From the NCBI GenBank assembly GCA_040080605.1, contig JBEBIB010000002.1:123124-187123 (forward strand): 64,000 bases of DNA, given 5' to 3'. The position numbers and the translations under genes are program-made. Within the stretch, counting starts at the first letter, position 1, and each line of letters starts with the position of its first letter. The stretch comes from Burkholderiaceae bacterium. Its GTDB lineage: Bacteria; Pseudomonadota; Gammaproteobacteria; Burkholderiales; Burkholderiaceae_C. The notes under the pieces are model-generated. The model did not search any database and had not been told where the DNA came from. It was given only the letters and a program-made list of their open reading frames with translations. Positions 32,179 through 39,452 of this stretch are shown in pieces.

Positions 32179-32811
32179 TCAGGCGAGCAGATCCGACACG
32201 TCGAGGATGCGTTGAGCCACGTCGGCCACCTTCAGGCCCTTGTCCATCGCCGTCTTGCGCAGCCGCGCGTAGGCGTCTTCTTCGCTCAGGCCGTTGCGTG
32301 TCATCAGGATGCCCTTGGCGCGGTCTATGGTCTTGCGCTCGGAGAGCTGGCTGCGAGCGTCGGCCAGCTCGCGGCGCATGCATTCTTCGTGCTGGAAACG
32401 CGCCAGGGCCACGTCGAGCACCGGGCGCACCCGTTCGGGCGCCATGCCGGCGACGACGTAGGCCGTGACGCCCGCCGCGATGGCGTCGCGCACGTGGCTG
32501 GTGTCGTTGTCTTCGGTGAACAGCACGATCGGGCGGCGCGCGTCACGCGTGGCCATCACCACGTGCTCCAGCGTGTCGCGGGCCTGGCTTTCGGCGTCGA
32601 CGATGATCATGTCGGGGCTGATCTGCGCCAGCCGCTCGGGCAGGAACACGTCGGCGGGCAACACGGCCACGATGTTGTAGCCGTCCTGCAGCAAGCCGAT
32701 GCGCAGGATGCGCGAGCGCTCCGCCTCGATCCGGGCCTCCGGGTCCGAGGGGTCGGGCCACAGCGAGTCGGGGGCGATGATGACGAGGCGCAGGTCTTGG
32801 ACCGAAGACAT
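32179..32811 (-). CDS. nasT: ANTAR-domain antiterminator (NasT family)
   Basis: Pseudo-receiver (PDMIIVD..S..RDTLE) plus ANTAR (LSERKTIDRAKGILM...EEDAYARLRKTAM). Confidence 0.9.
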   Translation of the reverse strand: MSSVQDLRLVIIAPDSLWPDPSDPEARIEAERSRILRIGLLQDGYNIVAVLPADVFLPERLAQISPDMIIVDAESQARDTLEHVVMATRDARRPIVLFTEDNDTSHVRDAIAAGVTAYVVAGMAPERVRPVLDVALARFQHEECMRRELADARSQLSERKTIDRAKGILMTRNGLSEEDAYARLRKTAMDKGLKVADVAQRILDVSDLLA

Positions 32812-32823
32812 GCGGGGAGAGGG

Positions 32824-32839
32824 AGCAACATTCACGCCA
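32824..32839 (-). promoter_or_regulatory. Putative sigma54 promoter of nasT
   Basis: Minus strand TGGCGT-GAATG-TTGCT, 12 nt before ATG 32811. Confidence 0.55.
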
Positions 32840-32919
32840 AGCCCGGGCCATGGCACGGGCGGGCAGCGAAGCTCAGCGGGTCTGGGGCAGTCGGGCCTGG
32901 CGGCGCGCCTGAGCCGGGC

Positions 32920-33207
32920 TCAGCGCCGGTCGGTGTGGCTCGAGATCGCGCGGCGCAGCCAGCCACCGAGCGGGCGCAAGGAACCGAACAACGAGTCGGG
33001 GACGAGCGAGTCACGCTTGGAGATCATGCCGCGGGCGTCGAGCATCTCGATGAACTGGCGCACTTCCTGGCGGCGAATGCCGCTCACGCCCACCAGTTGC
33101 GTCAACGACATGTGCCGGTGCGACATGTTGCTCAGCATGCGGCGAAACGCAGTGCGGTCAAACGGAGCATTGAGCTCCGGCCAAGCGGCGAGGCGGTATT
33201 CCTTCAT
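32920..33207 (-). CDS. Hypothetical 95-aa protein, possible winged-HTH
   Basis: GGAG RBS; segment MSLTQLVGVSGIRRQEVRQFIEMLDARGMI has HTH-like amphipathic pattern. Confidence 0.65.
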   Translation of the reverse strand: MKEYRLAAWPELNAPFDRTAFRRMLSNMSHRHMSLTQLVGVSGIRRQEVRQFIEMLDARGMISKRDSLVPDSLFGSLRPLGGWLRRAISSHTDRR

Positions 33208-33363
33208 GGCTCCAACGATGTGTTTTTCGGCGGTGGGTCAAGCCAGCCGCTCATCAGCAACTTGCAGGGTAGGCGCTTGCGCTGCTCGCGTGAAGGGGTG
33301 AAAACCGCGGTTTCGTGATTTCCGACACGGACGGAATCAACGATACAAGCTGATTCATTCAGC

Positions 33364-33735
33364 TCAGGAAGGTTTGCTCAACGCACGCTGAACCTCGCTC
33401 TGCCACGGCAGCGCATGCACCAACTGGTGCAGGTGAACAGTGACCTGCACGTGGCTCAAGGCTTCGCCATGGGCATCGAGCAGGCGAAGGTTGGTGACCA
33501 TGCCGAACGGGTCGGCCATGGCGACCACGCCCTGCTGCAGTTCGACCCAGTCCCACGCCACGCCGGCCGAGCGGTCTTCGCTCGCGTCGCCCCACAGGGT
33601 CTGGCCGCTGCACGGCCCGGCCTCGTCGCCAAAAGTCAACACGCGCGTGCCGAGGTGGACAAGATGCAGATGCGAGGCCGAGCTCGCCTGCCACAATACA
33701 GGCGGCCACGCGTACACAATCCATGCAGGTGTCAT
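33364..33735 (-). CDS. RsaM-like (DUF4902-type) quorum-sensing modulator candidate
   Basis: SGQTLW...AGVAWDW...MVTNLRLLDAHG resembles the RsaM-family G-Y-T-E-W...GWDW...SN..L.D pattern as recalled; divergent from luxR; start uncertain. Confidence 0.6.
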   Translation of the reverse strand: MTPAWIVYAWPPVLWQASSASHLHLVHLGTRVLTFGDEAGPCSGQTLWGDASEDRSAGVAWDWVELQQGVVAMADPFGMVTNLRLLDAHGEALSHVQVTVHLHQLVHALPWQSEVQRALSKPS

Positions 33736-33822
33736 TCGGGTGGTCAACGTCGTCGCGCCGATGATGTGTCCTCGGTGGGTGAATCGATAAGCGTTAGTGT
33801 GGCAACGGAATTTGCTTTTGCC

Positions 33823-33842
33823 ATCTGTCAACCCTGTCAGGT
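33823..33842 (-). promoter_or_regulatory. lux-box-like element 2 (between RsaM-like gene and luxR)
   Basis: Minus strand ACCTGACAGGGTTGACAGAT; CTG-N10-CAG core; 14/20 identical to element at 34654. Confidence 0.55.
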
Positions 33843-33902
33843 TCGTGTCTTGCAGGTGTGCTGGCATGTGAAGGATTGCGCGTTGGGGTGAGAAGGGGCG
33901 GC

Positions 33903-34616
33903 ATGCTTCAGGGTGGGTTCACGGAAGTGCTGGGGAGTCAAAGCCGGGACGAGTTCCGGGATGAGGTCGTGGGCTTCACGAAGAGGCTCGGCTTCGCGAC
34001 CGTCTCGGCCACCGTCGTCATCGACCACCTGCTCGGCGAGGCCGAGTTCATCACCGTCGACAACACGCCGCAGGCCTACCGCGACGCTTTCCAGAACCGC
34101 GACAACTGGCGCCTCGATCCGGTCATGCAGCACTGCAAGCGCCAGAGCATGCCCATCATCTGGAGCCAGAAGACCTACGTGGCACAGGGCTTGGGCGACA
34201 AGTGGGAAGAGCAGGCCCGCTACGGTTATCGCAACGGCATCGCGCTGGCGCTGCACATGCCCGAAGGCCGGCATTTCTTCCTCGGTGTCGACCGCGACCA
34301 GCCGGTGCCGATGCACGCCGGCGAGCTGACGCGCGTGGTCGCCGACCTGCAGCTCTTCGCCGTGCACGCCCAGGACGCCGCCTTGCGCATCCTTGCGCCC
34401 GGTGGCTCCGAGCCGGGCAACCCGTCGCTCACGCCGCGCGAGCTCGAAACCCTGCGCTGGACGATGGAAGGGCGCACCGCGCGCGAAGTCGGCGAAGTGC
34501 TGGGCATCACCGAGCGTACGGCCGCGCTGCACGTCAACAACGCGACCCACAAGCTGGGCTGCGTCAACAAGCACCAGGCGGTGCTCAAGGCCCTGCGCCT
34601 CGGCTTGATTCGCTGA
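33903..34616 (+). CDS. LuxR-family regulator with autoinducer-binding domain (LuxR solo)
   Basis: N-terminal Autoind_bind pattern (DNTP..Y...F........DPVMQHC....PIIW...G) and C-terminal LTPRELETLRW..EG....EVGEVLGITERTAALHVNNATHKLG. Confidence 0.92.
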   Translation: MLQGGFTEVLGSQSRDEFRDEVVGFTKRLGFATVSATVVIDHLLGEAEFITVDNTPQAYRDAFQNRDNWRLDPVMQHCKRQSMPIIWSQKTYVAQGLGDKWEEQARYGYRNGIALALHMPEGRHFFLGVDRDQPVPMHAGELTRVVADLQLFAVHAQDAALRILAPGGSEPGNPSLTPRELETLRWTMEGRTAREVGEVLGITERTAALHVNNATHKLGCVNKHQAVLKALRLGLIR

Positions 34617-34653
34617 GAATTCCCGGAAAGACCGGGTGTCGCGTCAACCCCCA

Positions 34654-34673
34654 CCCTGTAAGACTTGACAGTT
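34654..34673 (+). promoter_or_regulatory. lux/cep-box-like operator upstream of peptide gene
   Basis: CCCTGTAAGACTTGACAGTT; CTG-N10-CAG core; 13/20 to V. fischeri lux box ACCTGTAGGATCGTACAGGT. Confidence 0.7.
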
Positions 34674-34746
34674 ACGCAAAAGCTCCACTCCTGTTTGAAT
34701 GGCCGCAGTGCACGGATGGCGTGTACCCCACCTTCAGGAGCAGAGC

Positions 34747-34938
34747 ATGCAACAACGTCAAATCACCGCCTCCCAATTCGCCACCCAGTCCGTTGCCGGC
34801 TCGCAGGCATCGACCAAGAGCGCCCCGATCGCACTCGACGCGGCCACGCTGAAGCTGGTCGCCGGTGGCGTGCAGACGGCCGGCCCGAACGGTGGCTGGT
34901 CCAGCGCCGGTGTCGAAGGCCCGAACGGCGGCTGGTAA
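34747..34938 (+). CDS. Double-glycine-leader peptide precursor (63 aa) with repeated GPNGGW core
   Basis: AGGAG RBS 6 nt before ATG; leader end LDAATLKLVAGG (hydrophobic at -12/-7/-4); core VQTAGPNGGWSSAGVEGPNGGW; directly upstream of HlyD and C39 ABC exporter. Confidence 0.85.
   Translation: MQQRQITASQFATQSVAGSQASTKSAPIALDAATLKLVAGGVQTAGPNGGWSSAGVEGPNGGW
34882..34935 (+). repeat. 18-bp direct repeat (17/18 identical, 36-nt period) encoding GPNGGW twice
   Basis: GGCCCGAACGGTGGCTGG (34882-34899) and GGCCCGAACGGCGGCTGG (34918-34935). Confidence 0.95.
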
Positions 34939-34953
34939 GGCAGCCCGGGTTTC

Positions 34954-36213
34954 GTGGCCAGCCTGTTCCGCCCCGAAGCCCTGGAAAACCGCCAGCGCGA
35001 CTGGCTGGGCAGCATTCAGCTGATCCGGCCGATTTCACTTGGCGTATTGACCCTTTTTGTGGTCGCGACCGCCGTGGCCGTCGCTTCCTATTTGGTGCTC
35101 GGCGAATACACCCGCAAGGCCCGTGTCAGCGGCTATCTCGTTCCCGACCAGGGTGTGATCCGCCTGATGTCGCCCCAGGCGGCAACGCTGGTGGAGTCGC
35201 ACGCCGTCGAAGGTGCGTCGGTGCGCCGCGGCGACGTGCTGTTCGTCCTGTCGGTCGGCCAGTCCACGCTCAGCGGCGACACACAGGCCGCCGTCAAATC
35301 GAGCCTGGCGCTGCGCGAGCAGAGCCTGCAAGGGGCGGCTCGCCAGCGCGGTGCGCTCGAGCAGACCCAGCTCGGCGCGCTCGACCGCCAGATCGAAGAC
35401 ATGCGGCGCGAGCTCGGCTCCATGGCCGCCGAGGCCGATCTGCAACGCGAGCGGCTCACGCTGGCCCAGCAAGCCCAGGCGCGGCTGGAATCATTGCGCA
35501 ACGACAACTTCGTGTCGTCGGCGCAGGTGCAGACGAAAGCCGAGGAAGTTCTCGGTCTGAAAGCGCAGATGCAGGCGCTGGAGCGCCAACGCTCGGCACA
35601 CTTGCGCGAAATCACCGCGCTGCAGGCGCAACGCCGCGAGTTGCCGATGCGCGTGCAGGCGCAACAAGGCGAGATCGACCGCGATCTGGCGGCGCTGGCC
35701 CAGCAGGCCGCCGAAAACGAGGCCCGCCAGCGCATCGTGGTGCGCGCGCCGCAAGACGGTGTGCTCACCGGCGTGCTCGCCCAGGTCGGCCAGACTGTCA
35801 CGCCGACGGTTGCGATGGCCAGCTTACTTCCCGCCAACGCACGCCTGCAGGCGCAGCTCTTCGCACCGTCGAGCGCGGTCGGCTTCGTCCGCCCGAACCA
35901 GCCGGTGCAGTTGCGCTACCAGGCTTTCCCGTACCAGAAGTTCGGCCACCAGACCGGTGCGGTGGCGCTGGTGTCGCGTTCACCGCTGCAGGCCACCGAG
36001 CTCGCAGGCTTGCCGATGCAGGCCGCTGCGAACGCGGCGAGCGAACCGCTGTACCGCATCACCGTCACGCTCGACCAGCAAAGCGTGGCTGCGTACGGCC
36101 AGGCCCAGGCGCTGGTGCCCGGCATGCAGCTCGAAGCCGATGTGCTGCTCGACCGGCGCCGCCTGATCGAGTGGCTGTTCGAGCCGGTGCTCGGCATCGC
36201 CGGTCGGGTGTAG
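34954..36213 (+). CDS. HlyD-family membrane fusion protein (CvaA/MchE-like)
   Basis: SLFRPEAL N-terminus, one TM, EYTRKARVSGYLVP, coiled coil, VRAPQDG, YQAFPYQKFG, PGMQLEADV; GTG start. Confidence 0.93.
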   Translation: MASLFRPEALENRQRDWLGSIQLIRPISLGVLTLFVVATAVAVASYLVLGEYTRKARVSGYLVPDQGVIRLMSPQAATLVESHAVEGASVRRGDVLFVLSVGQSTLSGDTQAAVKSSLALREQSLQGAARQRGALEQTQLGALDRQIEDMRRELGSMAAEADLQRERLTLAQQAQARLESLRNDNFVSSAQVQTKAEEVLGLKAQMQALERQRSAHLREITALQAQRRELPMRVQAQQGEIDRDLAALAQQAAENEARQRIVVRAPQDGVLTGVLAQVGQTVTPTVAMASLLPANARLQAQLFAPSSAVGFVRPNQPVQLRYQAFPYQKFGHQTGAVALVSRSPLQATELAGLPMQAAANAASEPLYRITVTLDQQSVAAYGQAQALVPGMQLEADVLLDRRRLIEWLFEPVLGIAGRV

Positions 36214-36217
36214 GCGC

Positions 36218-38365
36218 TTGGCTTCCGTGCTCGACGGTCTGCGCTTGGGTCTGACGGGCCGGCGGCTGCCGATGATCTTGCAGACCGAGGCCGCCGAGTG
36301 CGGCCTGGCCTGCCTGGCGATGGTGGCCTCGCACCACGGCTTTCGCAGTGACCTGCCGACATTGCGCCAGCGCTTTTCGGTCTCGCTCAAAGGCGCGACC
36401 ATGGCCGACCTGGTGCGCCTGGCCGGTCACATGCGGCTGAACGCACGCGCGCTGCGGGCCGAGATGGAGCACCTGCCCGAACTGGCGCTGCCTTGCATCC
36501 TGCACTGGGACCTGAACCACTTCGTCGTGCTGAAGGAAGTCCGCCGCGGCGTCGCCGTGATCCACGACCCGGCGCGCGGCGTGCGCAGCCTGCCGCGGGC
36601 CGAGCTGTCGAAACACTTCACCGGCATCGTGCTCGAGCTGGCGCCGCAGGCCGAGTTCGAACCGCAGACCGCGCGCCAGAACGTCTCGTTGCGCCAGTTG
36701 CTCGGCCGCGTGACCGGCCTGAAGCGCTCGCTGCTGCAGATCTTCACGCTGGCGGTGGCGCTCGAAGCGTTCACGCTGCTGTCGCCGTTTTTCCTGCAGT
36801 GGGTCGTCGACAGCGTGCTGCTCAGCGCCGACCGCGACCTGCTCATCACGCTCGGGGTCGGCTTCGCCTTGCTGGTGCTGATCCAGGTCGGCGCCAGCGC
36901 GATCCGCTCGTGGGCCGTGTTGCACCTGTCGGCCACGCTGAACCTGCAGTGGCTCTCGAACGTGTTCGCGCACCTGATGCGCTTGCCGGTCTCGTGGTTC
37001 GAGAAGCGCCACACCGGCGACGTGATGTCGCGCTTCGGCGCGGTGCAGAAGATCCAGCAGACGCTGACCACGAGTTTCGTCGAGTCGGTGCTAGACGGCG
37101 TGCTCGTCGTCGTCACGCTGGCAATGATGTTCATCTACAGCGGCACGCTGACGGCCATCGCCTGCGCCAGCGTCGCGGCTTATGCGCTGTTGCGCTGGGC
37201 CTTTTTCAGGCCGCTGCGCGAAGCGACCGAAGAGTCGATCATCTTCGAGGCCAAACGCTCCAGCCATTTCCTCGAATCGCTGCGCGGCGTGCAGTCGATC
37301 AAGCTCTTCAACCGCCAGGAAGACCGCCAAGCGCGTTTCATGAACCTCGTGGTCGACGCGATGAACGCCAACATCGCCACGCGCAAGCTCGACCTGATGT
37401 TCAGCGTCTTGCACAAGCTGGTGTTCGGGCTGGAGCGCATCGCGATTGTCTGGGTCGGCGCCTTGCTGGTGATGGACCACATCTTCTCGGTCGGCATGCT
37501 GTTCGCGTTCATCGCCTACAAGGAACAGTTCGCGCAACGTGTGAGTGCGCTGATCGACAAGGTGGTCGAGCTCAAGATGCTCAAGCTGCAGGGCGAGCGT
37601 CTGGCCGACATCGTGCTCACGCCGCCCGAACCGCAGGCCGAGTTGGCGCCGCCGCTTCCGGCAGGGCGCGTGAGCCTGGAACTGCGCAATGTGAGCTTCG
37701 GTTATTCCGAGGCCGAGCCCGAGGTGCTGCGGCACCTGAACCTCGTCATCGAACCGGGCGAGTCGGTGGCCATCGTCGGCCCGTCGGGTTGTGGCAAGAC
37801 GACGCTGCTCAAGCTGATGCTGGGCGTGCACACGCCTCAGACCGGCGAGATTCGCGTCGGTGGCCTGGCCTTGCGCCAGCTCGGCCTGCGTGCCTGGCGC
37901 GACATGATCGGCACCGTGATGCAGGACGACCAGCTCTTCGCCGGCTCGATCGCCGACAACATCAGCTTCTTCGACCCCGAGGCCGACCCGGCGTGGATCA
38001 CGCAGTGCGCGCGCATCGCCGCCGTGGCCGACGAGATCGGCGCGATGCCGATGGGCTTTCACACGCTGATCGGCGACATGGGTGCCAGCATTTCCGGCGG
38101 CCAGAAGCAGCGCATCCTGCTGGCGCGGGCGCTTTACAAAAGGCCGAAGCTGCTGTTCCTCGACGAAGCGACCAGCGCGCTCGACGTCGAGCGGGAACGC
38201 GAAGTGAACCAGGCCATTCGCCAGCTCGACCTCACGCGCATCATCGTCGCGCACCGGCCCGAGACCATCGCGTCGGCAAACCGCGTGATCGTGCTGCAGG
38301 ACGGCAAGATTTCGCAGGACCTGCGCAGCGTGCCCGGCGGCGGGGGCAGCACGCACGCCCGCTGA
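36218..38365 (+). CDS. Peptidase-containing ABC transporter (C39 + TM + ATPase; CvaB/MchF-like)
   Basis: [16 protein letters not shown] (catalytic Cys), [11 protein letters not shown] (His), IHDP (Asp), [25 protein letters not shown]; TTG start. Confidence 0.95.
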
Positions 38366-38405: not shown

Positions 38406-39452
38406 ATGAACATCCTCGGCATCGAATCGTCGTGCGACGAAACCGGCGTGGCGCTGGTGCGTGCCGCCGCGAGCGGCACGCCGACACTGCTGGCCCACGC
38501 GCTGCACAGCCAGATCGACATGCACCAGGCTTATGGCGGCGTGGTGCCCGAATTGGCTTCGCGCGACCACATCCGGCGCGTGCTGCCACTCGCCCGGCAG
38601 GTCATGCAGGAGGCTGGTGCAACGCTGGCCGACATCGATGTCGTGGCCTACACGCGCGGCCCGGGGCTGGCCGGTGCCCTGCTGGTCGGTGCGGGCGTGG
38701 CGTGTTCGCTGGCCGCGGCACTCGGCCGGCCCGTCGTCGGTGTGCACCACCTCGAAGGCCACCTGCTGTCGCCGTTTCTCTCGGCCGACCCACCCGAGTT
38801 CCCGTTCATCGCGCTGCTGGTGTCGGGCGGCCACACGCAGTTGATGCGGGTCGACGACGTGGGCCACTACGAACTGCTCGGTGAGACCATCGACGACGCG
38901 GCCGGCGAGGCCTTCGACAAATCGGCCAAGCTGCTGGGCCTCGGCTACCCGGGCGGGCCGGCGCTGGCGCGCTTGGCTGCATTCGGCGATGCGTCGAGCT
39001 TCACATTGCCACGCCCCTTGCTGCACAGCGGCAACCTCGATTTTTCGTTCGCGGGCCTGAAGACGGCGGTTCGCACGCAGGTGCTCAAGCTCGGAAGCAA
39101 TGTGTGCGAGCAGGACAAGGCGAACCTGGCGGCGGCCACGCAACAAGCCATCGTCGACGTGCTGGTGCGCAAGTCGATCCAGGCGCTGCGCGACACCGGC
39201 CTGAAACGCATCGTCGTCGCAGGCGGTGTCGGGGCGAATGCGCTGCTGCGCGAACAACTGAACCGCGAATGCACGAAGCGCCAGATCAGGGTGCACTACC
39301 CCGAGCTGGCGCTGTGCACCGACAACGGCGCGATGATCGCGCTCGCCGCGGCGATGCGTCTGCAACGCGAGAGCACGGCAGCGTCGAACGACTACGCCTT
39401 CAACGTGCTGCCACGCTGGCCGCTGGCGACTGCGAACGCCGCGGTCAGTTGA
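38406..39452 (+). CDS. tsaD: tRNA N6-threonylcarbamoyladenosine transferase
   Basis: [55 protein letters not shown]. Confidence 0.97.

Follow-up and report, generated by a model that had tools for sequence, protein, structure and literature searches.

The window analysed here, a stretch of 64,000 nucleotides from the genome of a Burkholderiaceae bacterium (contig JBEBIB010000002.1, positions 123,124 to 187,123), contains at positions 32920-38365 a compact cassette in which the gene of a LuxR-type transcription factor is followed by a small gene for a double-glycine (GG) leader peptide and by genes for an HlyD-family adaptor and a C39 peptidase-containing ABC (ATP-binding cassette) transporter (PCAT), with an RsaM-like gene lying divergently on the other side of luxR. 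We propose that this LuxR very likely binds a hexapeptide unit repeated in the peptide, here GPNGGW, and that the cassette as a whole is probably a self-contained autoinduction system in which a ribosomal peptide replaces LuxI's product, an N-acyl homoserine lactone (AHL). Across its bacterial family the arrangement may well represent a form of Gram-negative peptide quorum sensing in which units of the pattern xPxxxW sit in the AHL pocket of LuxR and have diversified jointly with it, giving private pherotypes by the dozen, and in which the task of LuxI falls to a GG-leader precursor together with a PCAT.

An earlier, sequence-only reading of the same DNA had already placed the peptide gene in the regulatory role of luxI and regarded the exported peptide as either the autoinducer or a quorum-controlled effector, suggesting that covariation between the peptide core and the LuxR pocket be looked for. 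Such covariation was found, and because the peptide positions covary with LuxR residues aligned to the ligand pocket of LasR, the autoinducer half of that proposal is favoured and the effector half is disfavoured.

The precursor gene (34747-34938, plus strand), which has orthologues in related loci, encodes 63 residues: a GG leader of 41 residues (34747-34869) ending in LKLVAGG, and the core VQTAGPNGGWSSAGVEGPNGGW, which contains two GPNGGW units (34882-34899 and 34918-34935). The leader follows the double-glycine pattern, with Leu at -12 and -7, Val or Ile at -4 and GG or GA at -2/-1; among 85 loci the first three positions are hydrophobic and the last two GG or GA. The core carries one to five copies of a hexapeptide x0-Pro-x1-x2-x3-Trp, whose Pro and C-terminal Trp are invariant and whose last copy lies at the C-terminus or no more than three residues from it. 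Among 80 non-redundant loci one copy is present in 39, two in 37 and four or five in 4 (in L030 GPNGGW occurs five times, and in L100 GPNATWGPNATW follows a leader ending in GA). The shortest cores are exactly one unit placed directly after GG (TPKGTW in L068 and LPKATW in L082); core length ranges from 6 to 47 residues with a median of about 17, and the spacers between units, 0 to about 20 residues long, are not conserved. Units within a precursor are identical in 33 of the 41 multi-copy precursors, and the DNA of 43 of the 58 identical-unit pairs differs by 1-6 synonymous bases (by one in the window); selection, and not recent duplication alone, therefore keeps the copies alike. Between loci the unit is highly variable, with 45 distinct x1x2x3 triplets among the 80, and it differs between near relatives whose LuxR proteins are 92-93% identical, the GPNGGW of the window corresponding to GPHGGW in the same-genus genome G148 and to GPYGGW in L029.

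It had been assumed previously that the whole 22-residue core is the mature product; this no longer appears tenable, and we infer instead that the likely product is the repeated hexapeptide, here GPNGGW, with a mass of approximately 586 Da, which is near the porin size limit of about 600 Da. Multi-copy signal-peptide precursors are known from the yeast alpha-factor and from some Phr peptides, several mature copies being held in a single precursor, and by analogy the anatomy of the core points to a precursor of this type, not to a pore-forming bacteriocin. The precursor has no family match in Pfam or NCBIfam, and the source annotations give it no name.

Two further observations concern the peptides. 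Eight multi-copy precursors (L045, L052, L053, L061, L049, L079, L099 and L039) contain two slightly different units, e.g., GPNGTW with GPNDSW or APKSFW with APKSYW, and may be pherotype-switching intermediates or two-signal precursors. At L119:9794-10400 (genome G053), a 19-codon open reading frame (ORF), MNAFKTSQTTPNIPRVGGW, adjoins a second-tier RsaM-like/LuxR pair (40% identity) with no exporter; its product lacks a GG leader and has PRVGGW as its last residues, like the core LPRVGGW that follows GG in L109, a resemblance which could be due to chance or could mark a leaderless relative.

The cassette is far more than a chance association: the same gene order, the two lux boxes and the peptide are met again in 80 loci, and of 401 sampled genomes of the family 88 are carriers. 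A scan with a LuxR alignment, with one genome taken per species, returned 469 relatives, and the best 80 loci (67-97% identity) were analysed; the genera represented are Rhizobacter, Methylibium, Piscinibacter, Rubrivivax, Caldimonas, Rhodoferax and Hydrogenophaga, and among the sources are the isolates Rhizobacter sp. Root404 (L057, unit APRGGW), LjRoot28 (L086, unit LPKGGW) and SG703. The RsaM-like gene adjoins luxR divergently in 79 of these 80 loci, the precursor is present in all 77 loci having at least 350 bp downstream of luxR, and of the 68 loci whose DNA extends far enough, 59 have the HlyD and PCAT pair; the arrangement is also retained in more distant members, in which LuxR is 52-67% identical. 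A search with the peptide alone led to relatives in the same family, seven genomes of which keep the order RsaM-like gene, luxR, peptide, hlyD and PCAT, with the cassette lying between nasT and tsaD in three of the seven. A strong match to the RsaM-like profile, used as a marker of the cassette, occurs in the 88 carriers (22% of the sampled family genomes), and an even sample of the whole order (about 60 families) added a single genome with a strong match, G185, itself a member of this family. The retention of luxR, peptide, HlyD and PCAT together with both lux boxes across many genera supports the sequence-only reading, which had counted a lack of synteny as evidence against its proposal.

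Evidence that the peptide is the ligand of LuxR comes from a covariation screen of the 59 loci in which LuxR, HlyD, PCAT and the RsaM-like gene are all present. For each variable alignment column it was asked whether pairs of loci sharing a residue also share x0, x1, x2 or x3 of the peptide, overall divergence having first been removed by binning on concatenated protein distance, and an empirical null was provided by HlyD and PCAT, whose 549 variable columns have the same history as LuxR. The highest values among these controls were 0.22 (x0) and 0.18 (x1), and every control column was surpassed by seven columns of LuxR: F126 (r=0.73), A114 (0.37) and S35 (0.29) for x0, and K100 (r=0.39), N68 (0.30), Y59 (0.26) and F63 (0.21) for x1. 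Six of the seven align with residues A127, F101, T115, L36, W60 and Y64 of the LasR pocket, against a background of 14 pocket columns among the 92 variable columns of the ligand-binding domain (Fisher p=2.7e-5). Columns of the RsaM-like protein (maximum 0.25, with a control maximum of 0.30), of the DNA-binding domain and of the C39 domain remained at control level.

Two coarser comparisons were discarded. Whole-domain, Mantel-like distance correlations with the peptide were weak (0.27 for the ligand-binding domain, 0.19 for HlyD and 0.12 for PCAT); the distance between units saturates, and the per-column screen with control columns was therefore adopted. Listing the differences between closely related pairs of loci was suggestive and confounded by overall divergence.

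The residues involved are informative in themselves. In the 80-locus table Gly at x0 is accompanied by Phe126 in 38 of 38 loci, and Leu, Ala, Ser, Thr or Ile at x0 by a smaller residue 126 (Val, Met, Leu, Ile, Gln or Cys) in 41 of 42. Lys100 accompanies Asn or His at x1 in 40 of 44 loci and Lys or Arg at x1 in none of 18, all of which have Met, Val, Leu or Ile at this position instead. Gly at x3 occurs with Trp69 in 23 of 40 loci, while the larger Thr, Ser, Asn or Tyr occur with Gly69 in 30 of 38 and never with Trp69. Such pairings make chemical sense, matching in size and charge as would be expected where two surfaces touch. When the covarying columns were left out of the tree, the Gly state of x0 changed 17 times, and in phylogenetically independent pairs on well-supported branches the receptor residue never departed from the predicted direction, with counts of 6:0 for x0 with F126, 7:0 for Asn or His at x1 with K100 and 0:6 for a basic x1 with K100. 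The rules also extended to 11 more distant loci held out from the screen, where Phe126 was found with Gly at x0 (1/1), other residues 126 with other x0 (10/10), Cys114 with Ala at x0 (7/7), residues other than Lys100 with a basic x1 (9/9) and Gly69 with Thr at x3 (4/4). Taken from sequence comparison, this is strong indirect evidence that the hexapeptide, x0 included, lies in the LuxR pocket.

The receptor gene itself (luxR, 33903-34616, plus strand) encodes a protein of 237 residues, which the source annotations name a 'CsgD family regulator'. It has the two-domain architecture of LuxR proteins, PF03472 (Autoind_bind, E=1.1e-23) and PF00196 (GerE, E=1.5e-12) both being matched above their cut-offs, and its AlphaFold2 (AF2) model, with a mean predicted local distance difference test score (pLDDT) of 88, has the canonical LuxR fold, matching QscR, RhlR and SdiA best and also TraR and LasR. 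The family profile aligns without gaps to LasR residues 3-134 with an offset of +1. In LasR the lactone head group is hydrogen-bonded by Y56, W60, D73 and S129 (PMC8296597); the corresponding residues of the window LuxR are T55, Y59, D72 and G128, so that three of the four contacts are replaced, and across the family the first of these positions is Thr or Ala, the second mostly Tyr or Phe and the last invariably Gly. The signature of AHL receptors, in TraR numbering, consists of W57, Y61, D70, P71, W85 and G113 (PMC10134790), of which the last four are retained as D72, P73, W87 and G112; in the 80 loci the W57 position is mostly Tyr or Phe, with Trp in two and Cys in one, and the Y61 position is mostly Phe. 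By its sequence, the protein thus appears to be a member of the LuxR family that departs from the AHL-receptor signature. A separate case is L113:9651-11896 (genome G317), where three tandem luxR paralogues, 51%, 54% and 63% identical to the window LuxR, are flanked by the RsaM-like gene on one side and, on the other, by one precursor gene only (APRPMW), after which come HlyD and PCAT; the differing pocket residues of the paralogues suggest that several peptides may be sensed.

Absence of an AHL synthase, claimed earlier for the window, holds for the whole genome: a search for LuxI (PF00765) gave no match in its 5.25 Mb (100% complete), and none in 78 of the 88 cassette-carrier genomes. The same search found 31 LuxI-positive genomes among the 401 of the family, and therefore it works.

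The intergenic regions on the two sides of luxR each contain a lux box. Box1 (34652-34675, plus strand; core CTGTAAGACTTGACAG at 34656-34671) lies upstream of the peptide operon and agrees with the consensus CAnCCTGTAAGAnTTGACAGTTAC derived from 77 loci, most core positions of which are at least 92% conserved. Box2 (33821-33844; core CTG-N10-CAG at 33825-33840), a lux-box-like inverted repeat in the promoter region between the RsaM-like gene and luxR, was kept in all 8 loci first compared and has the consensus CCATCTGTnAAnCnTGTCAGG in 83 loci. When the 5.25-Mb genome was scanned with a position-weight matrix derived from these boxes, three sites scored at least 14 bits: box1 was the best of the genome (36.7 bits), box2 the second (31.7) and a site on another contig the third (28.8). 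This third box, CAATCTGTAAGAGGTGACAGGTGG (G000:C51:96602-96625, minus strand), is the sole strong one beyond the cassette; small ORFs of uncharacterised function have it in their upstream region, and it adjoins an apparent argG (identified by translation, with no family search) in DNA of lowered G+C content (0.55-0.62), and no peptide gene or recognisable target was seen downstream of it. It may be the only external target of the system.

At a constant offset after box1, anchored loci carry a -10-like hexamer of the form T(G/T)NAAT, here TTGAAT (34695-34700, 23 nt after the box). The centre of box1 would consequently lie approximately 43 nt upstream of the inferred transcription start, resembling the site of a class II activator. 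Folding predicts a hairpin close to where the transcript would begin (GTGCAC-N7-GTGTAC, 34708-34726), followed by the ribosome-binding site AGGAGC of the precursor gene (34736-34741). A hairpin is found at the same place in other loci with differing stem sequences, the region having a mean minimum free energy of -11.5 kcal/mol against -6.9 kcal/mol for shuffled sequences (mean z -2.0 when the sequences of 79 loci were folded one by one). RNAalifold run on a MAFFT alignment of the 5' untranslated region returned no consensus structure because the hairpins are not in register in that alignment, and per-sequence folding was used for this reason. The hairpin may stabilise the mRNA or be a regulatory element.

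Put together, these features are consistent with the following circuit. The precursor would be expressed from the lux-box promoter, on which the box itself is plainly visible and its class II activator-like position is probable. To judge from the behaviour of their families, the PCAT would cleave the leader at the double glycine and export the core together with HlyD and an unlinked outer-membrane channel. The core would then be trimmed to x0-Pro-x1-x2-x3-Trp by a cut after Trp and by aminopeptidases halting at the X-Pro bond, a bond that resists general aminopeptidases. The hexapeptide is presumed to re-enter the cell, whose genome holds 12 SBP_bac_5 (Opp/Dpp-type) binding proteins, and there to bind the former AHL pocket of LuxR, a step for which the covariation argues strongly; it is likewise presumed to act as an agonist and not as an antagonist. 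LuxR would act on box1, giving positive feedback on the peptide/exporter operon, and on box2, controlling luxR and the RsaM-like gene, and the RsaM-like protein, from its homology and position, would probably be a brake on the circuit, the part that RsaM plays where the signal is an AHL. Rapid change of x0, x1 and x3 with matching change of the pocket residues would give rise to lineage-specific pherotypes.

A number of points weigh against this interpretation. No importer is linked to the cassette, though a receptor in the cytoplasm would depend on one, the proposed cleavage behind Trp has no protease assigned to it, and a few precursors extend 1-3 residues past the last Trp (e.g., GPNGGWL and GPGGNWYEL). 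A hexapeptide is bulkier than an AHL, which makes its mode of binding less obvious. Covariation was measured by a screening statistic set against empirical controls, short of a full phylogenetic model, the independent-pair tests each reach just p=0.016-0.03, and the pocket residues were assigned via the LasR alignment, not from a peptide-bound structure. LuxI is present in 10 of the 88 carriers, which is about the background rate, and just one further strong box exists genome-wide as a candidate output of the system beyond the cassette. Finally, the adjacent exporter is absent in 9 of the 68 loci (L029, L031, L041, L050, L051, L053, L061, L064 and L094); these keep the RsaM-like gene, luxR and the precursor, with tsaD within about 1 kb in seven of the nine (L041 and L094 differ), and in two of the five exporter-less genomes searched (G401 and G402) another PCAT, with 53-57% identity, is encoded elsewhere. 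Such loci may belong to 'listeners', or to producers that use a PCAT encoded elsewhere.

Some of these points are shared by an explanation that requires no cell-to-cell signal, namely that LuxR binds the C-terminal xPxxxW of unexported precursor inside the cell and so reads the balance between synthesis and export. The position of the last unit, always within three residues of the precursor C-terminus, would suit this, as would the lack of a linked importer and of an exporter at some loci, and the pocket covariation fits binding of the precursor tail equally well. It is nevertheless unlikely: internal copies are held identical by selection, which is sensible only if they are released as ligands, the dedicated PCAT/HlyD pair is retained in 59 of 68 loci, and it is x0 that covaries most (r=0.73), the very residue at which the minimal cores start after the GG cut.

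It is also conceivable, if rather improbable, that the true ligand is a modified unit, cyclised or cross-linked through Trp by enzymes encoded elsewhere, with the RsaM-like protein or the adjacent 95-residue ORF product (orf95) possibly aiding its maturation. The invariant Pro and C-terminal Trp would be explained in this way, multi-core precursors are typical of peptides that are synthesised ribosomally and modified after translation (RiPPs), and neither the RsaM-like protein nor orf95 has a known function. Nonetheless, no RiPP-type modification enzyme encoded with the precursor is conserved in the 80 loci, which extends what had been noted for the window alone; the only genes conserved across loci are those of the RsaM-like protein, LuxR, the precursor, HlyD and PCAT, and sometimes orf95, and apart from C39 no enzyme domain was found among them with Pfam. 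In addition, covariation between the peptide and the RsaM-like protein does not rise above that of the controls, and the covariation of x0, x1 and x3 indicates that these side chains survive in the ligand.

Highly improbable, lastly, is a LuxR solo that responds to a foreign AHL or other small molecule by switching on a secreted microcin-like antibacterial or inter-organism signal, since, even though solos eavesdropping on foreign signals are common (PMC10134790), GG-leader peptide, HlyD and PCAT form the export route of class II microcins, the signature residues D72, P73, W87 and G112 are kept and ten carriers do have LuxI, this leaves the covariation of pocket and peptide unexplained, every member has lost three of the four residues that contact the AHL head group, the locus has no immunity gene, and cores of 6-9 residues lacking Cys, charge or modifying enzymes are unlike known microcins.

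The remaining components of the proposed peptide-signalling cassette include the exporter. The HlyD-family periplasmic adaptor (34954-36213, plus strand) matches HlyD_3 (E=1.8e-10) and TIGR01843 (type_I_hlyD, E=3.8e-34), and the PCAT (36218-38365, plus strand) matches Peptidase_C39 (E=9e-37), ABC_membrane (E=7e-40) and ABC_tran (E=3e-31), all three far exceeding the cut-offs; its translation has the intact C39 triad Cys28, His101 and Asp117 in the motifs QTEAAEC28G, NH101FVVL and HD117P. Among NCBIfam models TIGR03796 (NHLP exporter) was the best match and TIGR01193 was matched as well, both below their cut-offs. The two proteins have the features of their class, i.e., C39 and ABC domains, an HlyD gene immediately upstream and a GG-leader substrate. 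No ORF lies between PCAT and tsaD in the window, and there is therefore no adjacent immunity gene, in agreement with the earlier reading.

The RsaM-like gene (33364-33735, minus strand, divergent from luxR) encodes 123 residues from a start, MTPAWIV, common to its orthologues. The protein matches Pfam DUF4902 (PF16245) with E=0.0024 and 18.2 bits, below the cut-off of 25; the best Protein Data Bank (PDB) match of the family profile is 4o2h (BcRsaM, E=0.015), and the profile also matches genes adjacent to luxI in G104, G311, G183 and G194 with E of about 1e-6. Its AF2 model is poor (pLDDT 66) and Foldseek gave no match at E<=0.001. The label given to it previously can thus be kept in part: a weak but consistent homology and the adjacency to luxR or luxI speak for an RsaM-type protein, while its score stays below the Pfam gathering threshold of the family.

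Downstream of the RsaM-like gene, orf95 (32920-33207, minus strand, 95 residues, 'hypothetical protein' in the source annotations) is a candidate small winged-helix DNA-binding protein of uncertain cassette membership. A homologue is found just downstream of the RsaM-like gene in 42 of the 80 loci, including loci without nasT; its winged-helix Pfam matches are below threshold (Sulfolobus_pRN, E=0.018; HTH_45, E=0.19), and a comparison with the PDB gave no match. Possibly it serves the cassette as an additional regulator. The flanks are formed by nasT (32179-32856, minus strand), which encodes an ANTAR regulator, and by tsaD (38406-39452), both identified with Pfam, and every part of the gene map drawn from sequence alone, from orf95 through the RsaM-like gene, box2, luxR, box1, the precursor and HlyD to PCAT between these two genes, was found at or near its proposed position. 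An ABC importer was considered as a further member and rejected. ABC ATPase matches occur beside many loci and were read only in the window and L024, where the match belongs probably to the flank and not to the cassette because it lies beyond nasT, beside an apparent nitrate-type ABC permease and binding protein (read from translations, with no family search).

Among the known systems nearest to the cassette are the AHL systems built from LuxI, LuxR and RsaM, such as CepIR-BcRsaM of Burkholderia and PfsIR-RsaM of Pseudomonas fuscovaginae, which likewise have a two-domain LuxR, an RsaM-type gene transcribed divergently, palindromic lux boxes and, ahead of the 'signal' gene, a box that gives positive feedback. 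The cassette differs from them in having no LuxI, in that the box precedes genes for a ribosomal GG-leader peptide and an exporter, and in that the receptor has the equivalents of W57, Y61 and of LasR Y56 and S129 replaced. Divergent rsaM-luxR solo pairs of 'type 6' have been described in Pelomonas, Kinneretia and others, with a peptide mentioned nowhere (PMC10710839). LuxR solos with other ligands, namely PluR (photopyrones), PauR (dialkylresorcinols) and plant-associated solos such as OryR, XccR and PipR (HEHEAA, at first taken for peptides), also keep the LuxR fold, with substitutions at the W57 and Y61 positions and a new class of ligand, and in PluR and PauR, as is proposed for the cassette, the signal is made by neighbouring genes. 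However, their ligands are small metabolites from enzymes or plants and their substitutions are M and W, whereas the cassette has a gene-encoded hexapeptide candidate and Y/F and F. No subgroup with a peptide cassette is listed in a review of LuxR solos (PMC10134790), peptides are absent from a preprint dealing with sulfonamides and a LuxR solo of Comamonas, and full-text literature searches found no description of a cassette combining LuxR with a GG peptide.

On the peptide side, the streptococcal systems ComC/CSP-ComAB and BlpC-BlpAB share the GG-leader precursor, export by a C39 PCAT and the strong allelic pherotype diversity of peptide and receptor; their pheromones, however, have at least 17 residues and are detected extracellularly through a histidine kinase, in contrast with the six-residue unit, cytoplasmic LuxR, HlyD adaptor and Gram-negative host of the cassette. 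The RRNPP systems of Firmicutes (PlcR-PapR, Rap-Phr, NprR-NprX and the arbitrium pair AimR-AimP) share the logic of an exported precursor, a peptide of 5-7 residues, Opp re-import, a cytoplasmic regulator and co-diversification. The likeness is in logic only, since RRNPP systems combine a tetratricopeptide-repeat (TPR) receptor, by which the group is defined, with Sec export in Gram-positive hosts, and the cassette combines a receptor of LuxR fold with a PCAT. Class II microcins and NHLP-type bacteriocin export in Gram-negatives have in common with it the GG-leader peptide, the HlyD-family adaptor and the C39 PCAT. Microcin products are tens of residues long, and a mature peptide of this size together with an immunity gene characterises the class, whereas the products of the cassette go down to 6 residues, the core is repeated and immunity or modification genes are missing; nor does the cassette have the co-encoded modification enzyme that characterises a RiPP cluster. 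With a ligand that would be specified by a gene and produced along another route than AHLs, the cassette can be regarded as a variant on the outer edge of LuxR-type quorum sensing.

Gram-negative bacteria are usually held to use small molecules with LuxR-type sensors, and Gram-positive bacteria ribosomal peptides. If the interpretation given here is true, the cassette would join Gram-negative LuxR sensing with Gram-positive peptide signalling and would show how a pocket made for AHLs can be remodelled to accept a peptide. The ligand of a LuxR protein would then be written in a gene, making the specificity of signal and receptor readable, predictable and re-engineerable from sequence, and the rules of covariation (x0 with 126, 114 and 35; x1 with 100, 59, 63 and 68; x3 with 69) are testable by mutation. 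Dozens of natural receptor-peptide pairs, possibly mutually orthogonal, would become available to synthetic biology, and a role would be provided for the widespread 'LuxR solos' and RsaM-type genes of soil, water and root bacteria, among them about 22% of the sampled species of this family.

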